Shown here one piece after another: positions 965 through 24,237 of a stretch of 64,000 bases of DNA. Positions within the stretch are counted from its first letter, which is position 1. Each line of letters starts with the position of its first letter. The DNA lies in the NCBI GenBank assembly GCA_965223265.1, contig OZ244999.1, positions 3,904,001 through 3,968,000 on the forward strand, written 5' to 3'. A program made the translations under genes and the position numbers. The stretch comes from Planctomycetota bacterium. Lineage in GTDB: Bacteria > Planctomycetota > UBA8108 > SXIK01. Under the pieces are notes generated by a model. That model did no database searches. It was not told the origin of the DNA and was given only the letters and a program-made list of their open reading frames with translations.

Positions 965-3900
965 GTGCCCATCGTCCTACGATTGTCGCACGGCCAGGTT
1001 GTTCCGCTTCACTCCGGCACGGTCATCCGTATCGGCGCCGCGTCAACCTGTCAGATTCGCCTCGACCACCCCGACATTCTTCCGCAGCATCTGGCGCTCA
1101 AGCTCGAAGGCGATCAGGTGCGTCTCGCTGCGGTGGCCGACGCCGGTGTCTACGTCAACGACCGACCAGTGTCGAAAGCACTCCTACGTGTTAACGACCG
1201 CATTCGAGTCGCGACGTTCGAGGCGACGCTCGAATCGAGTGGCGCGTACTCGCTCGAAGGCAAGGTCCTCGACGGCTATCGCATCGAAAGCTGCCTCGGC
1301 CGCGGCGCCATGGGGACGGTCTATCGTGCCACCCAACTATCGCTCGATCGAACCGTCGCCCTCAAGATCCTTGCCGATCACGCCACGGAAGATCACGCTT
1401 TCGTGCAGGCTTTTTTGAAAGAGGCACGAGCCATCGCCAAACTGAACCATCCCCGCGTTGTCCAGGTCTACGACGCCGGCCAATGCGACGGAAAGTTCTA
1501 CTTTTCGATGGAGTTTCTATCGGGTGGGACCGTCGCCGATCTGCTGACTCGAGAAGAACGCCTGCCGATGGAACGAGCCTTGACCATCGCGCTTGACGCG
1601 GCAGATGCGCTCGTGTGGGCGGAGGAGCAAGAGATCGTTCACCGTGACATCAAGCCAGCGAACCTCCTGCTCACCGAGGACGGCGCCGTGAAGGTCGGCG
1701 ACCTTGGCATCGCGCTCGACACGACCCAACGAACCGCGCAAGACGCCACGCGCAAGGCAGGTTCCCCGAAATACATGGCGCCCGAACAGGCACTGGGAAA
1801 ACCCGTCGATCGGCGCGCCGACATCTATGGACTTGGCAGCACGATCTTTCACATGCTTGCCGGCCGCCCGCCGTTCGAAGGGCAGTCGATGGCCGACCTC
1901 ATGCGTGCGAAGCTCGCTGAGGAGGCGCCAAGACTCGACGAATTCATGGCCATTGTGCCGCCACAAATCAATCGACTCGTCGCCAAGAGTCTGGCTCGCG
2001 AAGCGGAAGACCGCTTCAGCACGTGTGCTGAGATGCGAGATGCGATCGAGTCCGCGCTGCAGAGTCTTTCCCAACAGCAGGAGCCTCAAGAGAATAAAAG
2101 GATACACCGGACGCTCAAAAGAAAGCGCACCCTGGAGCGCCTATCGCTGTTCGCGTCTGTCGTGATCATTGTCGCCGCAGCCGTGTGGGCAACTCGCCCC
2201 AAGGACCCATCGGTGCAGCAGCCGCCCCCCACAACAACTGACGTGGATGTCGGAGCCAACAAACCGAAAACGCCGCAACAAGACTCGACCCACTCATCAG
2301 CTGACTCAAGCGACACGCAGCTCGCGGAGCTCCGGGACATTCGGCGGCGCTGGCAAAAAGGCTTGCTCACCGATGACGCCGCATTGCTTCAGTACAACAG
2401 GTTCCGCACGCTTCACCCAGGCGTGCATCGAAAGACTGTGGACGCGTTCCACGCCGAAGTCCAAACGGAGATCGTTCAAGCAGAGAAGAAAGTGGTCGAG
2501 CAGGAGGTTGCCAAACGAATTATGCCTTTGATCGACCGCGGTGAGTTCCGGCAAGCAGCGACTCATATTGCAAGCATTCGCGAGAAATACCGCCACGGAT
2601 CAGCGCCAGTGGACAAGGCGACGGACAAGATCCGGACGAAAGTAGGACTACTGATCGACGAGTCATTTGCCGTTGTCTCACAGCTCGTTGACGAGGGCAA
2701 GCTATCTTCTGCTCTCGATGAGCTCGACGCCCTCGCCTCGCTTGTGCCGTTCGAGTTCCGCAGTAAGGTGGACGATCGCCGTGAAGAAATCGACGCGATG
2801 GTCACGACTTTTTCGATTCGCGAGCGACAGCTCCGCGAGATCGAAGGAGACGTTTGGGTGGCACTCAGCCTTGGTGAAGCAGACGATGCCGAGGCACTGG
2901 CGCGTTCCGTCCCACCGGTCGCTCCGCTCTCCGCCGTCGATTCGCTCATCTCTGATCGCCGATCCGAGATGATCGGAGATGTCGAGCGGGCAGTGAGGAC
3001 CTGGAAGCGACTAAGAAAAGAGCTAAAAGACCTTCAGAAGCGAAGGAAGGCTTTCGTCTTCGCTTTCGCGCCCGATTGCCAGGAGAAGTTCGCCCGGTCG
3101 AAGTTTAGGGCATACGTCGGCGCACTAGGCGAAAGTCGTGTCACAGTTCACAGATCGAGAGGAGTGCGCCAACGAACGTTCGATGTGTTGGATCTCTCGG
3201 ACGAAGTGCTTCTCACACTGCTGGATTCGACCGAATCGCCGCCAGCGGAGATCAGCCAAGGCTTAGCGACGTTGCTGCTTCTAAGCCGAGGGCCGCAGCG
3301 CGCACGCCCCCTCTTGACGTCGCCTCGTCTGACGGGCGAGGATCGCGCGTCCAATCTCCACAAACTCGATGGAGGCGAGGAGAATTACCTGACTCGTGTG
3401 CTCTTTGGTGTAAGACGCCAATACGAGGCTGCTGCTACTCACTCGACGCCGGCACCCGTAGAGTCGCAAAGAAGAACCACTGAAGCCCTCGTACAGGCAT
3501 TGGTGCGTGTCATCACGAGCTATCGAGAAGATCCGGCATACGGAGAGCATCGCGCTGAGTTTTCTTCCCTCTTTCTCAAGTCGCACATAGCTCACGCTCG
3601 AGCCTACGGCGTTGAGACACTGTTCTCTGGCGAAGTGACGCGTTCAACCAACGACAGCGTTGACGTCTTCTACGATTTTTTGAGTAAGGAACAGCTCGCA
3701 GACTTCACGAAAACGACACCTGACACATCGACTCGCATCACAGACGAAGGTCTCGAGCTGTCAGGTGAGGTGAGACTGTTGCGGGGGATCCCCTTCAAGA
3801 GATACCTGAGCGTCACACTGGATGTACCAGCTGGTGGATACCATCTCAACGCTCCGAACATCAACCTCGCCCTCTGGACGCATGATGGCGATCTCGTCTC

Positions 3901-13901: not shown

Positions 13902-14804
13902 TCAACCGTCTTCAGCGCTGCGGATCCCCGCGGCGTCGAGAATCGCGTCCAGCTGCGCCGCGACTTCCTCGCCCACGGCACGGAGGGGGCGTCGCGGCGG
14001 GCCAGCCCGATACCCAAGGCGCTCAAGTGCGTACTTTAGCCCGGCGACACCGAAACGTGAGGTCACCGCCGCATTCAGCTCAAGCAAGCGAAAGTGAAGC
14101 TCACGCGCTGCGGGCAAGTCACCTGCGCGCACAGCCTCACAAAGTCGAACGCAGAGGCGCGGAGCAACCCCAGCAAGCGCCACAATGCCGCCGTCAGCGC
14201 CCATCGCCGCGGCATAGAGCAGCTGATGCCCCGACCCCGCATAGACACGGAACGCGTCGCTGCGATCACGCGTCAGGCGGGCGAGCAGCATCATGTCCCC
14301 GGAGGTGTCTTTGATGCCGATGACGTTTTCGTGGCGCGATAGGCGCTGCACCAGACCAGCAGAGAAAACGACGGGCGCAAACTTTGGCACGTGGTAAAGG
14401 ATCACCGGAAGCTCCGCTGCGTCGGCAACGCGCTCATAGTACTCGGCGACGACCGACTCAGTCATGCCGCCCAAGAAGTAGGAGGGAGGCACGACCAACA
14501 CTGCGTCGCACCCGCAGCCCGCGGCCCGCTGCGTGAGCTCGAGTGTCTCACGCAAAGACTGCCGCCCGGTCCCGGCGATCACCAATTTGCCCGGCGCGCG
14601 AGCCGTGACAGCGCACTCGAAGCAGGCTTCCGCCTCATCTGCGGTGAGATGGACCCCTTCGCCATTCGATCCGAGGACGACGTAGCCGGCGAGGCCCGTG
14701 GCGTTCCAGCGTTCGATGTTCTGCTGCAGCCCGTCAATGTCAACACGCTCGTCCTCGTGCAACGGCGTCACAATCGGCGGGAACACTCCGGCGCCAAGAC
14801 TCAT
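13902..14804 (-). CDS. DapA-family aldolase (4-hydroxy-2-oxoglutarate aldolase-like)
   Basis: GSNGE, LYHVP and GIKDTSG Schiff-base Lys motif; GGAGG before ATG 14804. Confidence 0.85.
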   Translation of the reverse strand: MSLGAGVFPPIVTPLHEDERVDIDGLQQNIERWNATGLAGYVVLGSNGEGVHLTADEAEACFECAVTARAPGKLVIAGTGRQSLRETLELTQRAAGCGCDAVLVVPPSYFLGGMTESVVAEYYERVADAAELPVILYHVPKFAPVVFSAGLVQRLSRHENVIGIKDTSGDMMLLARLTRDRSDAFRVYAGSGHQLLYAAAMGADGGIVALAGVAPRLCVRLCEAVRAGDLPAARELHFRLLELNAAVTSRFGVAGLKYALERLGYRAGPPRRPLRAVGEEVAAQLDAILDAAGIRSAEDG

Positions 14805-14834
14805 TCGTTCCTCCCGCAACCTGCGGTCGTGCGC

Positions 14835-16052
14835 TCAGTGGGTCGCGGGCACCACGACTCGATCGGCTAATCGTCCTATCGGCGGCAGCTCCCCGAGAAG
14901 TGGCAAAGCGTAGTCACGAAAGCTCGCCGCGATGTTGTTTCCTTCGGGAGCGACAAACTCCTGCGGTAGGCTTCTCGTGTTACGGGCAACATTGCTCAGC
15001 TCGGTCATCTCGTAGCGCACGGAATACTCAGCTCCAGGCTCGCGAATGATGACAACTGAACCGCTCTCGACGCGTCCCTCAGCAAGTGACTCGACAGCAA
15101 ATCTCCCGACGTCGCGTGCCTCGCGCGCGTCGACCTCAGAATGCATGCCAGGAAAACAGCGCTGGAGGTAACCGAACGTGTCTGCCCTCACCCGCGACGC
15201 GCCGACTCGCTTCTTCACCTGTTCAGCCAAAAAGTCGCCAAGGGCACCACTCCCTGAAAGCTGCACGTTGCCGTGAGAGTCGACCTCGCCAGTCGAGAAA
15301 ACGGGCGCGCCGTGACGATCACGGATGCCTTCGGAAACGGCCACGACGCAGCGCCCATGCTGATGGAGCACCCGAGCAACGTCGGAGCAAAACGCTTCCA
15401 CATCGAATTCCGCTTCAGGTACGTAGATCAGATGCGGTCCGTCATCTTCATGCTGGCGTCCAAGACTGGTCGCGGCCGTCAGGAATCCCGCATGCCGCCC
15501 CATGATCACGTCGATCTTGACGCCGCCGAGCGCGCGGTTGTCGAGATTGTCACCCATGAGAGCCATGGCGACGAAGCGCGCGGCCGAACCGAACCCGGGG
15601 CAGTGGTCCGTGACGAGCAAATCGTTGTCGATCGTCTTCGGGATATGAGCGACGCGAAAGTCATACCCCGCCTTGCGCGCCAATGAATCGACCAGGTGAG
15701 CTGTCTCCGCGCTATCGTTGCCGCCGATATAGAAGAAGTAACGAATGTCGTGCTTCTGAAAAATCCTGAAGATCCGCTCACACTCTTCGGCTTTGGGTTT
15801 CTTGCGGACCGAACCGAGGGCAGCGGACGGCGTCACCGCGACAGCCTCGAGCTCTGCGTCGCTCTGCGCCCCGAGGTCAATCAGCTCCTGCGCCAAAATG
15901 CCGCGGACTCCATGGCGCGCGCCATAGAAACCTGTGATCACATCGCCGAATTGCCGACTTGCCTGGACGGCGCCAACAAGACTCTGGTTGATCACGCAGG
16001 TCGGCCCGCCCGATTGGCCAATCAGCGCTTTTCCTACCAGACGACTAGTCAT
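14835..16052 (-). CDS. pfp: 6-phosphofructokinase, probably PPi-dependent
   Basis: QSGGP, YIGGNDS (Asp typical of PPi-type), PKTIDND, MGRHAG, GYLQR. Confidence 0.88.
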   Translation of the reverse strand: MTSRLVGKALIGQSGGPTCVINQSLVGAVQASRQFGDVITGFYGARHGVRGILAQELIDLGAQSDAELEAVAVTPSAALGSVRKKPKAEECERIFRIFQKHDIRYFFYIGGNDSAETAHLVDSLARKAGYDFRVAHIPKTIDNDLLVTDHCPGFGSAARFVAMALMGDNLDNRALGGVKIDVIMGRHAGFLTAATSLGRQHEDDGPHLIYVPEAEFDVEAFCSDVARVLHQHGRCVVAVSEGIRDRHGAPVFSTGEVDSHGNVQLSGSGALGDFLAEQVKKRVGASRVRADTFGYLQRCFPGMHSEVDAREARDVGRFAVESLAEGRVESGSVVIIREPGAEYSVRYEMTELSNVARNTRSLPQEFVAPEGNNIAASFRDYALPLLGELPPIGRLADRVVVPATH

Positions 16053-16387
16053 TTGTGTCCTCGAGATGACTGGATAGAATCCGGGTGCAGACCAACTCTT
16101 TTACCAGATGATCGTGACCCGGGAAAGCTTCGGGATGCGCGCAGCGACCACACACGACGCAAGCGCGCAGATTATGGCCAGAACGGGATGTTGCCAGAAA
16201 ACCGGGCAAAAACCAGCCATTCAATCTAAGTTCTTGTATTTTTGGATGATAGAACCGCGCCGCACATCAAGCCAGCGCTGAATGCATGGATTCTGCCCAC
16301 TTGCGACCATCGAGCGGATGACCACCCCTCCGCCGTAATCGCTGACATCTAAACCACTTGGGACATCTGAATGTTTTCTGCAGCAAA

Positions 16388-16403
16388 TGGAACAATGCTT
16401 GCA
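16388..16403 (+). promoter_or_regulatory. Sigma-54 -24/-12 promoter
   Basis: TGGAACAATGCTTGCA has the exact GG-N10-GC spacing and one mismatch to TGGCAC-N5-TTGCW; predicted start about 16414. Confidence 0.65.
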
Positions 16404-16413
16404 TATCGGACCT

Positions 16414-16621
16414 CACAGCAGCAAAAGAGTCCATGAGAGCGCCGCAAGGCGCGGAGTAAGAAAAAGGAAATCGGAGGGGTAACCTACGAAAGGGTAGGGT
16501 TGGGGTTGGGTATTCTCTCTTTGAGGGAGTTTGGGAGGGAAAGCAGATACCCATTTCTCCTTTTACTTGCTTCATTTCTTACGGAAGGGCGCCAGAAAAG
16601 ACGGTCTGGCGTCCTTTTTTT
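16414..16621 (+). ncRNA. Candidate sigma-54-dependent small RNA (RNA-1, about 205 nt)
   Basis: Lies between a sigma-54 motif and an intrinsic terminator; GCGCC-GCAA-GGCGC tetraloop hairpin, CCTAC/GTAGG and GGGTAT/ATACCC stems; no credible ORF. Confidence 0.55.
16585..16621 (+). terminator. Intrinsic terminator
   Basis: AAGGGCGCCAGA / TCTGGCGTCCTT stem ending in a T7 run. Confidence 0.8.
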
Positions 16622-16768
16622 GTGGGCTCGTCCAGCCGGCTCGTGGAGCGTTGTGAGTTTTTTGTTGCGCACCCCACGATTTGCCCCTAGGATGGCGCTA
16701 TCGATGTGCGTAGGGCCAACAGGCCCCTAAGATCGTGAGTTTTTAGGGAGACCTCTTGGCGCGCCGGG

Positions 16769-16973
16769 CGGCATTCATGCCGGCTTCCGCGGGTTCCGTT
16801 GGTTCCCAGTTCGGTTCCATGCTGGGGAGAGAACGGGGAAGTCCAGGGAAGCGTGGAACACCTGGCGGGTGAACGCTCATCGCGCGATGGCAGTTCGATA
16901 GACTCAAAGCTTTTTCATTTTTTCTCCTCGTTTGTGCCCCCTCGCCGTGGATCCTGCGCGAGGGGGTTTTTTT
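16769..16973 (+). ncRNA. Candidate structured small RNA (RNA-A) with anti-RBS tract; 5' end uncertain
   Basis: Consecutive hairpins, then the pyrimidine tract CTTTTTCATTTTTTCTCCTCG, then a terminator; no + strand gene lies upstream. No promoter identified. Confidence 0.5.
16936..16973 (+). terminator. Intrinsic terminator
   Basis: GCCCCCTCGC / GCGAGGGGGT stem with a T7 run. Confidence 0.8.
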
Positions 16974-17249
16974 GTGTCAGCCCGTTGACCTCGAGTCGAA
17001 TTCTCAGGTTGGCGAGAAACGGTACTCGGCGGCGTGGGTTGGTGGGCCTGAGGGTTTCTTGGTGCCGAATTCTCGCGACACTTGCTGCGCCATGCGCAGC
17101 TCTCCGGACGGCGATCGAGCCATCAACACCACGGCAGTCGGGCGCCGGATCGCGACGACAGTCCACAGAACCATTCCGTCAGCGGCTGGGACGTGACCAC
17201 CTGATCAGCGCCAGAGATCTGATCAGCGAAGAGATGCGGGGCCGCCGCT

Positions 17250-18518
17250 TCACGGACTCGTCGCGCCGTCGACACACGCCAGCTCGTCACTGATTCCGGA
17301 ATCCTCGCCAGGATACGGAAACGGACTCTCGGGCGCGGCACCCGAACGAAAGAGATGCCCGGCAAGAAACAGCGCGTCCGACACGTCAACAGCGCTGTCG
17401 TCGTTGACGTCCGCCGCGTCCGGGCATTCGAAAACTTCGCTGAGCGCGGCAATAGAGTCTTTGCCGCCGCCGACAAAAAGCCCATTGAGAATTGTCACCA
17501 CGTCAGCGAGATCAATCCGCCAGTCTCGATTGGAATCGCCGCGAACGAACAGTTCATCGCCGGAGACCACGCGAATCGTCATGGGACAAGCTCGAAACGG
17601 CTGCGCCGTGCCATCGCGCGAGAGCTCATTGACCAGCGCCGGGAAGCCATCAGCAGCAGGAACATCGGCAAAGCTGAGAATGATCTCCTCACCAACCGGC
17701 GCGTCGGGGCTGACGTCAAAAAGAAGGCGTCCAACAACACCGTTGTAAAACGACGGCAAAGGCTCGAATGGTGGCTGTAAGCCGATTCCAGCCGAGAAGG
17801 CAAACAACCCGTCGCTCGCCTGTCGGTCATACGGCAAGAAAAGCCCAGGCTCCACGCCGAGCTCGTCGAACACGGAGTCGGTGATCGAAACGGAACGCAT
17901 CGTCACGTGCTCAGGCGACACGCTGAGGCTGAGCGTGAAACCCTCAGTAGGTCCAGCGGTCGTGAGCAGGATGGGCACGCTCGCAGTCTGTCCCGGCATG
18001 ACCTTCACTTCACGGAGGAGTCGCACAAACTCAAGATCAGCGACACCGATGTCTTGGTCGCCGCAAGGTCCGCTGCGCGGCAGCCCACCGCCGCCACCAT
18101 CCCCTGCGAGAAGACCATCTTGCTCGAGATTGGCCGCGGAACGCTGACCGCAGGTGAGTCCATCAGGCGTTGGGTCTGTGCCGGCTTCGGCGCTGGGAGC
18201 CGGAATCAAGCCGCTTCGGAAAAACACACTGCCAATGAGGTAAAGTGGATCGACGAGGTCCAGCCGACCGGAATCGTCGACGTCAACGGCGTCCTCGCAA
18301 ACCACGGGAAACCCAAGGTGGAGGTGACGGAAGATCGCGAAAACGTCAGACAGCGTGACAGCGCCGTCGGCGTTTGCGTCGCCGCGAAGAAATGTAGGCT
18401 CCGCAGCACGTGCGGACGAACGGACAGAGGCTGCCAAGAAGGTGACAGCAACAGCAATCGCGACAGAGACGATCGCGCGCTCTCCACCCCTGCGCAGGAC
18501 ACAAGATCTCCAACGCAA
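17250..18518 (-). CDS. Secreted protein with two planctomycete-type dockerin-like (EF-hand) modules flanking a cohesin-like beta domain
   Basis: Signal peptide; FLRGDANADGAVTLSD...DAVDVDDSG and FVRGDSNRD..IDLAD...DAADVNDDS modules; GGAGG 7 nt before the TTG start. Confidence 0.82.
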   Translation of the reverse strand: MRWRSCVLRRGGERAIVSVAIAVAVTFLAASVRSSARAAEPTFLRGDANADGAVTLSDVFAIFRHLHLGFPVVCEDAVDVDDSGRLDLVDPLYLIGSVFFRSGLIPAPSAEAGTDPTPDGLTCGQRSAANLEQDGLLAGDGGGGGLPRSGPCGDQDIGVADLEFVRLLREVKVMPGQTASVPILLTTAGPTEGFTLSLSVSPEHVTMRSVSITDSVFDELGVEPGLFLPYDRQASDGLFAFSAGIGLQPPFEPLPSFYNGVVGRLLFDVSPDAPVGEEIILSFADVPAADGFPALVNELSRDGTAQPFRACPMTIRVVSGDELFVRGDSNRDWRIDLADVVTILNGLFVGGGKDSIAALSEVFECPDAADVNDDSAVDVSDALFLAGHLFRSGAAPESPFPYPGEDSGISDELACVDGATSP

Positions 18519-18668
18519 ATCATACCCTCCCGTGTAGCAGCCGCTGAACTCGCGGCTCAGTGTATAGTAAGGGTCAAATTCTAGAGCTCATCCGGCGCCG
18601 CATCAAGCTTCGTCCGGCAACGTTTTCACTTGAGGCCGGCTGGAATTCGACTCGAGCTGATGTGGGCC

Positions 18669-18775
18669 CGGAACAAAAGTTCCGCGCGACCATCGGAAGT
18701 GTAAATCGAAGGTTCAATTTGGCGCCGAATCCAGGCCGGAAAGTTTTCTATAAGATATTTAAAATAAATAATTTA
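18669..18775 (+). promoter_or_regulatory. Putative activator site (palindrome) and IHF-like AT-rich site
   Basis: CGGAAC-AAAA-GTTCCG at 18669-18684; AATAAATAATTTA at 18763-18775 has one mismatch to WATCAANNNNTTR. Order matches the UAS-IHF-sigma-54 layout. Confidence 0.5.
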
Positions 18776-18806
18776 CAACACTTCATCCAAGCCAAACAGA
18801 ACCCCG

Positions 18807-18822
18807 TGGCACGACCATTGCT
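18807..18822 (+). promoter_or_regulatory. Sigma-54 -24/-12 promoter
   Basis: TGGCACGACCATTGCT, a perfect consensus match; predicted start about 18833. Confidence 0.8.
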
Positions 18823-18832
18823 TTTAATTGGA

Positions 18833-18921
18833 CGGGTGGAAGTGGAGCCCTGAAACGGCCGCGGGGGCACAGGCGAGCGAGAAAAAAATGAAGTTCATGC
18901 GCCGTTTCAGGGAATCTTTTT
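18833..18921 (+). ncRNA. Candidate sigma-54-dependent small RNA (RNA-B, about 90 nt)
   Basis: Perfect 12-bp stem CCCTGAAACGGC (18848-18859) / GCCGTTTCAGGG (18901-18912) enclosing a 41-nt purine-rich loop, followed by AATCTTTTT; the 3' arm overlaps the activator stop codon in antisense. Confidence 0.55.
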
Positions 18922-21900
18922 GGAAACCCCTTCCTCAGAACCCTCGGGTTCTGCGGGCTCGAAACCGCGTCCCGGCGTGGACGGTCGAAGTTCGTGCTTG
19001 GCGATCAGCTGGCGCAAATAGCGTTCACTGATCCCGAGTGCGTGCGCGGCTTGGGGGACGTTTCCGTCAAACTCGTGGAGTGCGTCGAGAGCCAGCTGGC
19101 GCTCGGTCTCAAGACGTGCCTCTTTGAGCGTCGGAAGCTGTCTGGACGTCGACTCGCTCTGCAAAGGGACGCGGGGAGCCCGTATCACTTCTGGAGTCAC
19201 CTCGGCAGGCTGCTGGAGAAGCAGTCGAACGAGTTCGTTTTCAAGCTCGCGGACATTGCCGGGCCAGTCGTACTGCTGCCACAGCGTCAACACCTCGGGG
19301 TGTACAGCTGGGGACGGCGTGCCATGTTGAGCGCTGAGGTCTGCGATCAACAGGTTAACCAGCTCCGGAAGATCTTCGCGCCGCTGCCGCAAGGGCGGCA
19401 CGGTGAGCACCTCGCCGCTGAGGCGGTAGAAGAGATCCGATCGCAGTGTGGTACCGCTGGCCAAAACGCTGAGCGGCTGGCGACTGGAGGCTAACAGGCG
19501 AAAACTCACATCACGGTTCGAAGTGGCCCCGACTGGTCGCACGCGCCGGTCTTCGAGAACCTTCAAGATCTTTGCCTGAAGCGGCGCCGGAAACTCGGTA
19601 ACCTCATCGAGATACACGCTGCCGCCAGCCACCTGCTCAAAGATTCCGGGGCGATCCGCCGCCGCGCCGGTAAAGCTACCCCGCGCGAAGCCGAAGAGCT
19701 CCGCCTCGATCAAATTCTCCGATAGGTTGCAGACCTCGCTGAAGAACGGCAGTTCCCGGCGGCCGCCGAGCGCGTGGATCGCTCGCGCCACCAGGTCTTT
19801 CCCCGTCCCGCTCTCCCCGACGATGAGCACCGGAAGGTCGTGCTGAGCTACCCGCGAGACTCCATCGAGAAGCTCTTGCATGCGAGGAGAGCGACCGACG
19901 AGACGTCTTAACCACCCGCCGCCGGCAAGGACGCTCGTCTCCAGCTCACGCGTGGCACACTGCAGCTCCCGTCGCTGAGTCAACAGCTCAGTTTCAAGGT
20001 CCGACCGGCCGCTGGCAAGCATCTCGTTCAAGCGTCGCAGCTCATCCTCAGCTCGCGCCAACGCTGACTCCCGTTCGCGTAGGTTACTGCGCGTCGCGTG
20101 ATGCGACAGCACAGAACCAACAAGCAGGCCAGCAAGCAGGCAGGATCGACGCGTCTCAGGGTGCAGGGCGAGCTCTTCGCCGCCAAACTCGAAAACGACC
20201 TCGCGGCCGCGGATCCACTCTGTCGAGACGAATCGGCCACAGGTCTCAACGTCGCCTGACTCACGAGACGAGGCCCCACCACAGTGCTGCGCGAAGCGGC
20301 GCCAGTCCGCCGCCGGGGGCGCCGAGTACTCCAGACGACGCTCAGAACGACCGCCTGAGAAGACGAAGACAGCAGACGCTGCTAACCGCTGCTTCAGTCC
20401 GTCGAGAAAACCCTCAATTTCCGCCGCGCCCACGGAGTCGGGGAGAACTGTAGCTGCGAAGAGCGATGAGATCTCGGACGAGAGATTCGTTGCGGCGTCG
20501 GATCGGCTCGCGACGGCGCCCACGGCGCGCGGTGGCGTAGCATTCGTCAGCCCCCAAAACGTCTCAAAATCCGCTCGATCGGAATCGATCAGCCTCTGAG
20601 CGAGTCTCTGCCCAACTGTGAACTTCAGCCACTCCACTCGCCGTTGCACATCCGATGCCAGTCGGCGTCCTTCGACGAGCGCATGAGTGACAACGAACGC
20701 TTCCCACACATCCCCACGGGCAACGCCTGCCTGCAGCGCTCGAGTTAACTCCTCTCCTACAGACCCCGCGTCTCCTTCGAAGGACATCGCACCCGATAGC
20801 AAGGCCACGACGTCACGAGTCAACGCTTCGCGCTCCATCTCACTCAGCTCGCTGCGACGCCGCAGCCAACTGCGCGCAAAGTGACGTCGACCGCGGCTTA
20901 CGAGATAGAGCAGGAGGTTCAGCTGGCCAATGCGCAGATGGGTCAAGTCGTTTGTTGCTCGACTGGCGGCGATCCCTCGTCGCAAGTATTTGACCGCGAG
21001 CGACTCGTTCCCCGCAACGAGCTCGAGCTGGCCGAGGCTGAGCGCACTGTAGCCAACGCCGCGCAAATCTCCGGCAATTTCGGCCGCTTGTAACGAGGAC
21101 TCGATCAAACTTCTTCCTTCGTTGAGCGCGCCGCAGCCCCACTGGACTCGACCTGAAAGACACCGTGTGAGTCGCTCGAGAAAAACACTGGAGATGTCGG
21201 CGGCGCGGCGAGAGGCGGCGGCGCAGTGCCGCCGCGCCTTGCGTAAGTGTCCGAGATTCAGATAAATCTCACCGAGATTGTTGTGCGCCAAGACGAGATC
21301 GTTCGGACGCGTTGCAACGGTGGGGCGCAGGACGCGCTTGTAGAGTCTCATCGCGTCCAATAGTCGACCGCGCTCCCTCAAGACTCCCGCGAACCCAAGC
21401 CAGACAGTGGTCACCAAGGTGTGTCGACCGATCTCATCCGACAACGCACGTGCGCGATGAAAGAGCGATTCCGCTTCGTCAAGCTCGCGCCGTCGATAGT
21501 GAATCACAGCTCGATTGTAAACCGCACGCAGCGCTAAGACCCGGTCGCCCCGTCCACGTGCCAGTTCCTCGAGCTCTCTAAAGGACTCTTGCGCTTCATT
21601 CCACCTGCGTTTCTTGACATGAAGAATGCCGAGCTCGTTGAGCGCTGAACTCAGCACGTCGGGACGCCCGCTTTGACGCACCTCTTCAAGGTTGTGAGCC
21701 AAGGCTTCGACGAAGGGGCCGTCGTCACCATGGACTCCGAGGGCTTCAGCGTACAAGAAGAGCGTCCGGGTCCCTGAGAGCTGGCGGAGAGCTGGCGGCA
21801 GCCCCGAGAAGAGACGCAAAAACTCACTAGCTTTCTCCAGATGATGGGCGCCGCTGTCGACGTCACCGAGCGCAAAGCAAGTCGGGGCTAGTCGCGCATG

Positions 21901-24237
21901 CCACTCGTGAGCCGCGAGTCTCTCAATCAGCGCGTCGCCGCGCGCACACTCACGTTCCAGCGCGTCCTCCAGTACATCGTGCGCCTCCGCCGTGCGCCCG
22001 TTTGCACGCAGCGCTTCGAACGCGAGGCGAGCCGCCTGCCGTTGAAACCAAACTGGCGAGATGCGATCGCGATCCAAGGCCGTCAACACGTCGTCGAATC
22101 GGGACAGACGAAAGTAAGCTTGCGCCAATCGCAGTCGGAGAACAAACGACCGCCCGTCTGTCGTCGCCTGAAGCGCGTCACGACCACCGCAGCGCTCCGT
22201 CGCCGCAACGAACTCGGCGTCCAATTGGCGATGCAAAAGCCTCGAGGCGACTCGGCTGAGCTGCCGCATTGCGGCCTTAGGTGCTCCGAGCGCGGCAGTG
22301 TTTTCTGCATAGATCAGAAGCTCTCGACATGAGAGGTGCCGCGTCGCGCCCGGCTTGGGTTGAAAGTAGGTCGCGATTTGCTGGCGCAGACGCAACCATT
22401 CCTTCGGCTCAAGCAACTCCGCATGCTCGGAAACGCGCACGGTCGCCTCAAACTCCGGACGCTCGGGAGTGCCGACCAGCCGACAGACACCGTGAGCGCG
22501 CAGCGAATCAAGAGACGAGCGCCAATCCAGAGAGGTCTCGTGTGGAAAGTATTCGATCAACTGTTCGAGCGTCGCACGTTCACGTACGAGCAGCAGTGCA
22601 CCCAACACGACTTTCTCAGCTTTCGACAGAGACTCGGCGAGGGACGTCTCCACGTTGACGAGTCGGTCAGGAAGCTCTCGAGGTACGCGAAGATGTCCGA
22701 ATGAGTCGACCTGCAGCCCGAGCTGCTCTAGCCGAGCCAACGCCTGAAAGACGCGCTGTGGTAGTCCTTCTGACTCAGCCTCGAGACGCTTTATGAGCCA
22801 ATCAGGAGCCTCGTCGACAAGAAAGAACTCGCGCACGATAGCGCGGATCTCCGCCGATCCAAGAGGATCGAGATGAAGTATCTGGACTCCTGCGGGCGGC
22901 GCAGCAGCAGTGGCGAGAGCGCGCGCCAAATTCTTCGTCGCAATGAGCAACCGCGGCGATTTACGGTTCCCATCGAAGCGCTGACGGGAGGCAACCGCGC
23001 GAACGAACAAACGAGCCGGCGAGTTCGAAGGATCGTCCGAAGCTGAATCCTTCGACGAAGCGTCGAACACGTCACTCAGTAAAATGACCACGGATCTCTT
23101 GCGAAGACGCAGAAGCACGTCAGCAACGTCATCCTCTTTCGACGACAAACTCGACGATGGCGAAGGTTCATCGAGCTCACCAGCGAAACGCTGCACGGCA
23201 CGGAAGGTCTCCACGTCGTCCCAATGCTTGAAAGAAAAGACATGTAGACCTTCCATCTGAAGGCGGCCCGCGATCGCTTCAAGAAAAGCTCCGTGGCCAC
23301 TTCCTTCCGGTCCGACGACCAGATGCACTCGATCGGCGACCTCCACGACACGTCGCGCGCAGCTCGGGACGAGCGCTGCACGCCCGGCGAACCACAGATG
23401 TTGACGCCACTCCCCGCCGGTCGTCGTTCGACGCACGGCAACTCGCTCCTGCAGAACGTCGAGTGCCTCCCTCGCCCTCAGGAAGCGGCGAGGCCCAGAC
23501 ACGCTCGTCAGTCGCTCGACCAGGTCATTCAGTACGGGCGAGACGTCGTGAATGATTTGACGAAGCTGCGCCGGCCGACCAGCACGATGCCACTGCTCAA
23601 GGCCCGCACGATCGCCAAGTCGAAACGGAAGCCGCGCTGCGACCACGTGATAGAGCGACATACCGAGCGCGTAAAGATCGAGGTTCACATCACCGGCATC
23701 GACACGTGCTCGGTCCGGCTGGTACGCCGGGGTACCGCCGGCGACGGCGGCTTCGTTCATGCGATAGTGCTGCGACGTACCGAAGTCGATGAGACGCAGA
23801 CGCCCCTGCGGCGATTCGTTCGAAGTCTGGACGAGAAGGTTGGTCGGTTTCACGTCATGGTGCAGGATACCCCGGTGATCCAGATAGGCGAGCGCCGCGA
23901 GCGCGTCCGCCGCAATCTGAAGAATCCACTGCTCCCGCGCGCTCGCATCGACCCTTTGGAACGCCTGAAAAAGGTTTCCGCCGCCCACATAGTCGCTGGT
24001 GTAGTACGGGCCTGTCGACGTTTCTCCGTAGTCATGGACTCGTGCGATGTTCGGGTGAAACAGGTCGAAGAGCGTCGCGAATTCGGCAGCAAGGGCGGAC
24101 GCAGGAAACGCGAGATTGCGGAGGCGCTTCAGAGCCACGGGGGTGTTGGCTCGTTCTCGATCGAGCGCCAGAAACACCTCACCGTGCGCCCCGCCACCCA
24201 AAGATTTCACGATGTTGTAACGACGTGGGAGGCTCAT
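18907..24237 (-). CDS. Ser/Thr kinase - TPR - sigma-54 enhancer-binding protein (AAA+, Fis-type HTH) fusion
   Basis: LGGGAHGEV, VALK, HHDVKPTN, IDFG; degenerate P-loop GPEGSG; TPRs; GESGTGKD, ELFG...GSFTGA, YLDEV, DLFYRL, WPGNVREL; C-terminal AA..LGIS HTH. Confidence 0.92.
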   Translation of the reverse strand: MSLPRRYNIVKSLGGGAHGEVFLALDRERANTPVALKRLRNLAFPASALAAEFATLFDLFHPNIARVHDYGETSTGPYYTSDYVGGGNLFQAFQRVDASAREQWILQIAADALAALAYLDHRGILHHDVKPTNLLVQTSNESPQGRLRLIDFGTSQHYRMNEAAVAGGTPAYQPDRARVDAGDVNLDLYALGMSLYHVVAARLPFRLGDRAGLEQWHRAGRPAQLRQIIHDVSPVLNDLVERLTSVSGPRRFLRAREALDVLQERVAVRRTTTGGEWRQHLWFAGRAALVPSCARRVVEVADRVHLVVGPEGSGHGAFLEAIAGRLQMEGLHVFSFKHWDDVETFRAVQRFAGELDEPSPSSSLSSKEDDVADVLLRLRKRSVVILLSDVFDASSKDSASDDPSNSPARLFVRAVASRQRFDGNRKSPRLLIATKNLARALATAAAPPAGVQILHLDPLGSAEIRAIVREFFLVDEAPDWLIKRLEAESEGLPQRVFQALARLEQLGLQVDSFGHLRVPRELPDRLVNVETSLAESLSKAEKVVLGALLLVRERATLEQLIEYFPHETSLDWRSSLDSLRAHGVCRLVGTPERPEFEATVRVSEHAELLEPKEWLRLRQQIATYFQPKPGATRHLSCRELLIYAENTAALGAPKAAMRQLSRVASRLLHRQLDAEFVAATERCGGRDALQATTDGRSFVLRLRLAQAYFRLSRFDDVLTALDRDRISPVWFQRQAARLAFEALRANGRTAEAHDVLEDALERECARGDALIERLAAHEWHARLAPTCFALGDVDSGAHHLEKASEFLRLFSGLPPALRQLSGTRTLFLYAEALGVHGDDGPFVEALAHNLEEVRQSGRPDVLSSALNELGILHVKKRRWNEAQESFRELEELARGRGDRVLALRAVYNRAVIHYRRRELDEAESLFHRARALSDEIGRHTLVTTVWLGFAGVLRERGRLLDAMRLYKRVLRPTVATRPNDLVLAHNNLGEIYLNLGHLRKARRHCAAASRRAADISSVFLERLTRCLSGRVQWGCGALNEGRSLIESSLQAAEIAGDLRGVGYSALSLGQLELVAGNESLAVKYLRRGIAASRATNDLTHLRIGQLNLLLYLVSRGRRHFARSWLRRRSELSEMEREALTRDVVALLSGAMSFEGDAGSVGEELTRALQAGVARGDVWEAFVVTHALVEGRRLASDVQRRVEWLKFTVGQRLAQRLIDSDRADFETFWGLTNATPPRAVGAVASRSDAATNLSSEISSLFAATVLPDSVGAAEIEGFLDGLKQRLAASAVFVFSGGRSERRLEYSAPPAADWRRFAQHCGGASSRESGDVETCGRFVSTEWIRGREVVFEFGGEELALHPETRRSCLLAGLLVGSVLSHHATRSNLRERESALARAEDELRRLNEMLASGRSDLETELLTQRRELQCATRELETSVLAGGGWLRRLVGRSPRMQELLDGVSRVAQHDLPVLIVGESGTGKDLVARAIHALGGRRELPFFSEVCNLSENLIEAELFGFARGSFTGAAADRPGIFEQVAGGSVYLDEVTEFPAPLQAKILKVLEDRRVRPVGATSNRDVSFRLLASSRQPLSVLASGTTLRSDLFYRLSGEVLTVPPLRQRREDLPELVNLLIADLSAQHGTPSPAVHPEVLTLWQQYDWPGNVRELENELVRLLLQQPAEVTPEVIRAPRVPLQSESTSRQLPTLKEARLETERQLALDALHEFDGNVPQAAHALGISERYLRQLIAKHELRPSTPGRGFEPAEPEGSEEGVSKKIP

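Follow-up and report, generated by a model that had tools for sequence, protein, structure and literature searches.

The Qrr small RNAs (sRNAs) depend on LuxO and sigma-54, and qrr1 lies beside luxO; short cassettes lie between inverted repeats in a different kind of system, the invertible DNA switches of the Hin, Fim and shufflon types. Antagonism between sRNAs is described, in the part of PMC12559287 drawn on here, for Vibrio cholerae, where QrrX is a sponge of Qrr1-4, and for Caulobacter crescentus, where the stress-induced sponge CrfA pairs with the target-binding site of the conserved and abundant sibling sRNAs SisA-D and frees their mRNA targets; the sponges SroC, acting on GcvB, and 3′ETS-leuZ, acting on RyhB and RybB, pair with the seed of the sRNA and titrate it. 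The present report concerns a stretch of 64,000 nucleotides (nt) from a Planctomycetota bacterium (assembly GCA_965223265.1, contig OZ244999.1, positions 3,904,001 to 3,968,000 of the forward strand; hereafter the window), in which two predicted sRNA genes, designated RNA-A and RNA-B, carry complementary sequences on either side of a gene for a dockerin-domain protein. Conservation and promoter architecture suggest that RNA-B is probably an antagonist of RNA-A whose synthesis would be controlled by a neighbouring sigma-54 activator.

The complementary arms and the two predicted RNAs

When the reverse complement of the left flank was locally aligned with the right flank, nt 16914-16948 matched nt 18855-18892 with 32 identities in 35 left-arm positions and three 1-nt gaps, so that the match noticed in a first-pass annotation of the window, with its three bulges, was re-derived at the same coordinates. 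At two of the three differing positions an A of the reverse-complemented left arm faced a G of the right arm, and these positions become G:U pairs if both plus-strand RNAs pair, as that annotation had pointed out; the third, G against C, is a mismatch. The paired region spanned the CUCCUC tract and the entire 5′ arm of the RNA-A terminator (16937-16945), which confirmed the claim that the pairing covers the anti-ribosome-binding-site tract together with that arm. The predicted energy of the duplex between the seed region of RNA-A and RNA-B was -54.7 kcal/mol, compared with -31.6 +/- 3.5 kcal/mol for 200 dinucleotide shuffles (best shuffle -42.5), a control that had been proposed along with the match.

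An alignment score of at least 40 was reached by 4 of 3000 random pairs of genome segments in the same geometry (median 23, 99th percentile 32), and Gumbel extrapolation from those percentiles gave about 2e-4 per pair, or about one such match expected per 64-kb window when all pairs are tried. The match by itself is thus borderline significant, and its meaning comes from conservation. Only these two copies were found in the 9.18-Mb single-contig genome by a strict pattern search and blastn-short, which rules out a dispersed repeat, the possibility against which the first-pass annotation had cautioned. A third GGGGGCACA in the window lay, as read by eye, within a coding-like stretch, and the match was not continued there. 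Transposon ends were also ruled out, the enclosed gene encoding a dockerin protein and not a transposase.

A perfect 14-nt inverted pair, 16990-17003/18643-18656, with overlapping palindromes, was collinear with the 35-nt arms, lying 16 nt past the U-tract of RNA-A and 13 nt ahead of the enhancer-like repeat of RNA-B. It had only two copies in the genome, and an equivalent pair was absent from a 10-mer scan of seven relatives.

The left arm (16914..16948, plus strand) is the 3′ module of a predicted clade-specific sRNA, RNA-A, and comprises the complement of a start codon (UUCAU), a U-run, the CUCCUC anti-Shine-Dalgarno tract, GUUUGU and the 5′ arm of a terminator. The intrinsic terminator predicted for RNA-A (16937..16973, plus strand) had a stem of 16937-16945 with 16958-16966, a loop of 16946-16957 and a U-tract of 16967-16973. 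A tentative sigma-70-type promoter, TTGCGC, 17 nt, TAGGAT (16665..16693, plus strand), was read by eye, and a similar TTGCNN-N17-TAGNAT was seen by eye upstream in G014, G016 and G011 (G000 denotes the genome of the window, the other G numbers genomes of relatives and L numbers metagenome loci). Counted from this promoter, RNA-A would tentatively be about 270 nt long.

Genomes from other families within the order had one site each with 83-85% identity to the region 16908-16975. Of 21 genomes belonging to the order, 10, among them G000, contained the 17-nt core of RNA-A with at most one mismatch, compared with one match (1 of 21) for the backwards pattern, and many further copies were obtained from two collection scans with exact patterns. 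In an alignment of 38 copies, a U-run followed by CUCCUCGUUUG was invariant, usually with UUUCA before it and with a hairpin and U-run after it. Over the 38 homologues, 91.8% of the cells of the terminator stem were paired and 6 of its 10 pairs had changed on both sides; the covariation score was reached by none of 500 shuffles, and slid controls were 49-63% paired. Many U:G pairs in this hairpin were compatible with the plus strand only. A covariance model built for RNA-A found one copy in this genome, and in a 151-genome sample of the phylum it matched five, namely G000, G005 (of its order), G021 and G025 (family f4 of the same class) and one weakly elsewhere, a distribution that marks RNA-A as clade-specific. 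In sequence, the tract is antisense to a strong start of translation (GGAG, A-rich spacer, AUG AAA).

The possibility that a small conserved open frame runs along the minus strand of RNA-A was rejected, since in our own reading several homologues lacked the ATG and the frames varied in length and sequence. Neither RNA-A nor RNA-B matches an Rfam family: a search of window positions 14000-22000 against Rfam 15 with E up to 1 gave nothing relevant, the sole match being a chance match to a long non-coding RNA, and none of the RNA-A-like elements of six other loci was matched. Outside the window, an 18-nt stretch at G000:C1:6486710-6486727 (minus strand), just past a TAGAAT -10-like box, had one mismatch to the complement of the RNA-A tract and is a possible further partner or target of RNA-A. 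Gene starts at 2602750 and 4544625 had 14-nt exact matches to the same complement, and their predicted N-termini resembled signal peptides in our own reading.

The U-run/CUCCUCGUUUG tract with a hairpin and U-run downstream was also observed in contigs labelled Parcubacteria/Patescibacteria or resembling them (L045:3528-3629, L049:1259-1360, L051:2917-3018, L094:224-325, L096:5405-5506, L100:1955-2056 and L111). Some of these contigs had a GC content of about 38-41%, each tract had its own TATAAT-like -10 box 40-90 nt upstream, and no Rfam family was matched by any of them. They could reflect convergence on an anti-ribosome-site tract, horizontal transfer or, in part, the bias of an exact-pattern search; as a side possibility, RNA-A may fall within a wider class of anti-ribosome-site sRNAs found in Patescibacteria-like contigs as well.

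The right arm lies in a second predicted sRNA gene, RNA-B, of sigma-54 type. It forms a box complementary to RNA-A (18855..18892, plus strand; conserved core 18861-18877), upstream of which, on the same strand, were found a sigma-54 type -24/-12 promoter, TGGCAC-N5-TTGC (18807..18821), with a predicted start near 18832-18835, and an enhancer-like inverted repeat, GGAACAAAAGTTCC (18670..18683), the presumed binding site of the neighbouring activator, with a TGTAAA motif (18700..18705) between the two. The candidate activator of RNA-B is a 1776-aa protein (18907..24237, minus strand) combining Ser/Thr kinase, TPR, sigma-54 interaction AAA+ and Fis-type HTH regions, for which the Pfam E-values were 1.6e-48 (Sigma54_activat), 3.5e-28 (Pkinase) and 1.7e-4 (HTH_8).

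The box lies within a predicted hairpin (18848..18921, plus strand) made of a 12-bp stem (18848-18859/18901-18912) and a 41-nt loop that contains the box, with AAUC and a run of five U residues (18917-18921) after it. Its 3′ arm overlaps the minus-strand activator gene at the stop codon, and the whole is a possible weak terminator. The display of the box in a loop, one of the claims of the first-pass annotation, stood in so far as the stem with the box in its loop was the centroid fold of 18834-18925; it proved peculiar to this genome, and the fold as a whole was not unusually stable (z -1.8). The length of 35 nt had a similar fate, holding here, where an A-run, AUGAA and the inner terminator arm were added, while the pairing conserved among relatives was about 15-22 nt and lay in several of them (G012, G014, G016) just ahead of a normal terminator. 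Also peculiar to this genome was the promoter-to-box distance of 40 nt.

Conservation of the pairing among relatives

An RNA-B layout with a box complementary to RNA-A was found in 16 loci that also hold RNA-A; G002 was a 17th genome with the RNA-B module, and RNA-A was not found there. For eight genomes the sequence between the dockerin and activator genes was available, and in all eight this spacer contained the top-scoring match to the RNA-A seed of that same genome; eight further metagenome loci had the box likewise, 1.5-2.0 kb from RNA-A. Where the box was missing, the locus ended too soon past the dockerin gene, had been rearranged (L105) or was of a type other than the Planctomycete one, and such loci do not count as evidence of absence.

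The box was accompanied by the same upstream elements. A sigma-54 promoter of the form GG-N10-GC was located on the same strand 40-140 nt upstream of the box in 16 of 16 loci; the RNA-B promoter was perfect in G000 and G001, and the other 14 loci had 1-3 mismatches with GG and GC retained. The repeat GGAAC-N4-GTTCC, with at most one mismatch and 114-148 nt upstream of the promoter, was present in 12 of the 16 loci and, with two mismatches, in 2 more, one of the remaining loci being too short and one unclear; in 14 of 16, TGTAAA preceded the promoter by 100-120 nt. Across the whole genome, a repeat and a sigma-54 promoter set apart by the distance seen between them in these loci occurred once, at RNA-B, and the activator gene adjoined RNA-B wherever the flanking DNA was long enough.

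The box led directly into an intrinsic terminator in G012, G014 and G016, and a terminator followed about 100 nt later in L088 and G005, which indicates that RNA-B would be a discrete non-coding RNA rather than a leader. A trans-encoded type I toxin-antitoxin system of the TisB/IstR-1 type was rejected as an account of the pair: the frame after the AUG at 18884 was, in our own reading, basic and not hydrophobic and overlapped the activator gene, and in G012, G014 and G016 the box continues without a break into a terminator.

In 9 loci the RNA-B module shared the strand of RNA-A; in the other 7 (G005, G007, L088, L091, L095, L113 and L121) it was on the opposite one. The dockerin and activator genes retained their orientation in both classes, and in both the transcript expected from the promoter was complementary to RNA-A. 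What the inverted modules have kept is complementarity of the predicted transcript and not an orientation of the DNA. Together with the position of the box, always downstream of the conserved sigma-54 promoter, enhancer-like repeat and TGTAAA, this bears out the original proposal that pairing takes place at the RNA level between two plus-strand transcripts.

The substitutions in the box pointed the same way. In the 14-nt core of 13 loci (182 cells), 170 cells were Watson-Crick pairs, 11 were G:U and 1 was a mismatch, with no transversion, which extends to other loci the G:U compatibility first seen in the window; the closely related L088, L091 and L121 were left out of this count because of a 1-nt deletion that would bulge one U. 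A compensatory double change was found in G005, where a G to A change in RNA-A was matched by C to U in RNA-B at the paired position. The predicted duplexes were more stable than those with shuffled RNA-B in all eight genomes (z -2.8 to -6.5). The RNA-A tract was invariant over the 38 homologues and RNA-B varied, an asymmetry of the kind to be expected between a regulator with many targets and a partner dedicated to it. On these grounds the pairing between RNA-A and RNA-B is considered well supported, at the level of prediction.

Proposed antagonism and its alternatives

We favour the reading that RNA-B is an activator-induced antagonist, or sponge, of RNA-A, and hold it to be probable. It draws on direct observations, namely the sequences, their conservation, the promoter architecture, the strand-specific pattern of substitutions and the predicted stability of the duplex. 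The two RNAs would be the products of separate genes on either side of the dockerin gene, an arrangement kept in a clade of uncultured Planctomycetia. Since its tract is antisense to a strong translation start, RNA-A most likely represses mRNAs, the single-stranded tract covering their ribosome-binding sites. The adjacent kinase/TPR/AAA+ activator would presumably bind the enhancer-like repeat, upon which the sigma-54 promoter would fire and RNA-B would be made from near 18833. RNA-B would then offer its box, complementary to CUCCUCGUUUGUGCCCCC of RNA-A, and the pairing would mask the anti-ribosome-site tract and open part of the terminator hairpin. RNA-A would thereby be inactivated, as by a sponge or anti-sRNA, and its targets released.

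Several points weigh against this proposal. We infer the transcription of both RNAs, the mRNA targets of RNA-A, the link from the activator to RNA-B and the direction of control between the two RNAs. The exact TGGCAC-N5-TTGC was not enriched genome-wide (19 sites, compared with 28 for the reversed control), so that the promoter call for RNA-B rests on conservation and not on the match itself. In this genome the loop of the RNA-B hairpin is 41 nt long and the U-run after it is weak, which leaves the 3′ end of RNA-B uncertain here. Five C residues of the paired region are locked in the GC-rich terminator stem of RNA-A and would be hard to invade once folded. Cognate RNA-A/RNA-B pairs were not more stable than swapped ones (2565 of 10000 permutations were at least as good), in a test in which the G007 row used a second, weaker box that lowered that row; the result follows from RNA-A hardly varying. 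Of the compensatory changes that had been suggested as a check, the double change in G005 was thus obtained and an advantage of cognate over swapped pairs was not, and there was no lineage-specific co-variation beyond that one change and the wobble bias. Finally, the loci are related to one another, and the counts over them are not counts of independent events.

The same pair may also be under reversed or mutual control, RNA-B being a sigma-54-dependent regulator with targets of its own and the abundant RNA-A buffering it or being degraded along with it, for example by RNase III. A duplex as long (15-35 bp) and stable as the one predicted favours mutual destruction, and the 5′ domain of RNA-B, 65-125 nt in most lineages, is also in line with such a role. 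That domain, however, is poorly conserved and nearly absent in this genome, and the difference between the RNAs is the wrong way round for it: the tract that is invariant over 38 homologues, and resembles a general anti-ribosome-site seed, belongs to RNA-A, whereas the box of RNA-B tolerates wobbles, a bulge and a deletion. We regard reversed or mutual control as possible but unlikely.

Trans anti-termination would assign the pairing to another step. RNA-B would capture the nascent 5′ arm of the RNA-A terminator, and the resulting read-through would run antisense over the convergent dockerin gene and silence it; a kinase/sigma-54 activator would then control the gene of a secreted protein by way of a termination switch in which one RNA acts on another. 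Conservation within the box is highest in GGGGGCAC, which does pair with the 5′ arm, GUGCCCCC, the complementarity extended through the arm in G000 and G014 and partly in G012, L092 and L098, and RNA-A was convergent with the dockerin gene in all syntenic loci. Yet a trans-acting RNA would have a very short time window in which to catch a nascent 10-nt arm, and swapped pairs were as stable as cognate ones although the inner stems differ. L050, a more divergent Planctomycetota genome, had RNA-A at 1819-1920 with a different terminator stem, and its dockerin-activator spacer, at about 3400-3600, contained a 13-nt stretch that lay past TGTAAA and a poorly matching sigma-54-like site and was perfectly complementary to the single-stranded tract but not to the arm. 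This speaks for masking of the seed, not invasion of the terminator, as the common function, and anti-termination appears improbable to us.

More improbable still is that the right arm is a decaying, functionless inverted duplicate of the 3′ end of RNA-A in the 3′ untranslated region of the activator gene (minus strand), or a chance match. In MAFFT the right arm, taken on its minus strand, did align with RNA-A, and a second hairpin arm in degenerate form was part of that alignment; the raw match, too, is borderline for a 64-kb window. But the box is conserved in 16 loci and in G002 and, on the opposite strand, comes with a promoter architecture of its own, the RNA-A covariance model finds a single copy in the genome, and the wobble bias fits the sense of RNA-B and not that of RNA-A.

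A feature of the DNA itself, either inverted repeats bounding a cassette flipped by a recombinase, which was the less favoured alternative of the first-pass annotation for these 1.9 kb, or a shared protein-binding site, is hardly credible: although two collinear inverted matches (the 35-nt arms and the 14-mers 16990-17003/18643-18656) flank the dockerin gene and the RNA-B module was inverted during evolution, no serine or tyrosine recombinase (PF00239, PF00589) was found in the window, the nearest matches being over 200 kb distant, 7 loci have the arms as direct repeats with no change in the orientation of the dockerin and activator genes, the G:U bias is strand-specific and would be meaningless for double-stranded DNA, the likeness of the inner flanks beyond the arms, as expected of an extended inverted duplication, was not significant (45 of 500 shuffles scored at least as high), and one contig in each of four DNA runs (from 2 samples of 1 study, possibly the source of the assembly) spanned 16567-19400 collinearly and without differences, though a rare flipped form could escape contigs.

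Genomic setting and relation to known systems

All real genes of this region were on the minus strand. DHDPS (13902-14819) and phosphofructokinase (PFK; 14835-16052) were followed by the stretch 16053-17249, which was without a convincing gene and had two plus-strand intrinsic terminators, and then by the gene of the 422-aa dockerin-domain protein (17250..18518; Pfam Dockerin_1, E 1.6e-8), whose position between RNA-A and RNA-B is conserved. The order PFK, RNA-A, dockerin gene and activator gene was shared by G001, G005, G012, G014, G016, G017 and further metagenome loci, and in part by G007. The genome had two rpoN genes (Sigma54_DBD), at G000:C1:7158881-7159357 and 5073831-5074307.

A third candidate sRNA, RNA-0, was observed upstream of RNA-A at 16388-16621 (plus strand), with a sigma-54-like promoter, TGGAAC-N5-TTGC (16388-16402), and an intrinsic terminator ending at about 16621. 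Its tract at 16550-16594 (45 nt) was 100% identical to the genome of another family, and a sigma-54-like promoter was located 157-368 nt upstream of the conserved block of RNA-0 in 8 of 10 genomes. RNA-0 was without a GGAAC repeat and had a CU-rich tract similar to that of RNA-A; complementarity between RNA-0 and RNA-B was not found in 8 genomes (z -2.4 to +0.4). A 102-aa open frame at 16267-16575 (minus strand), which overlaps RNA-0, had no Pfam match and an odd composition and is unlikely to be a real gene. In the four DNA runs, contigs broke or branched at 16545-16596, where the depth rose several-fold, and one branch carried the RNA-A terminator sequence of G001; several relatives that share the invariant RNA-0 tract thus live in the same samples.

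To our knowledge, no regulatory sRNA has been described from Planctomycetes. Full-text searches, judged mainly from their listings, found no literature on Planctomycete regulatory sRNAs or on this motif. As read from the sequence, the locus would represent a complete circuit, with a sensor kinase/sigma-54 activator, an enhancer site and promoter, an induced sRNA and an invariant partner sRNA, and would add a case of an sRNA antagonist with a dedicated transcription factor encoded next door. Databases, and the search for targets in an uncultured lineage, would also gain two new candidate RNA families together with the third, neighbouring candidate.

Like the invertible switches, the locus has inverted repeats that flank a short cassette; it differs from them in the lack of a nearby recombinase, in the lack of a second orientation in contigs, in repeats that are direct in some relatives and in a constraint on substitutions at the RNA level. 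The locus also resembles the sRNA antagonists covered in PMC12559287. The logic proposed for RNA-B on RNA-A is that of CrfA and the SisA siblings, although the sequences are unrelated and the Caulobacter system, which is Hfq-dependent, was demonstrated by RIL-seq and genetics (PMC12559287) whereas RNA-A and RNA-B are known from sequence alone; in addition, the genes here are neighbours, and the putative antagonist has a sigma-54 promoter beside its presumed activator. SroC and 3′ETS-leuZ are processing products of other transcripts, whereas RNA-B would have its own promoter and, in most lineages, its own terminator. With the Qrr system the locus shares antagonism between sRNAs and a predicted sRNA driven by sigma-54 and an activator and encoded next to the activator gene. 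The roles appear to be exchanged, however, since in Vibrio it is the regulator that depends on sigma-54, the sponge being expressed by other means, whereas here the sigma-54-dependent RNA would be the variable, sponge-like partner. Thus, the sponge logic itself is already known, and what appears to be new is an sRNA pair with a dedicated sigma-54 activator.

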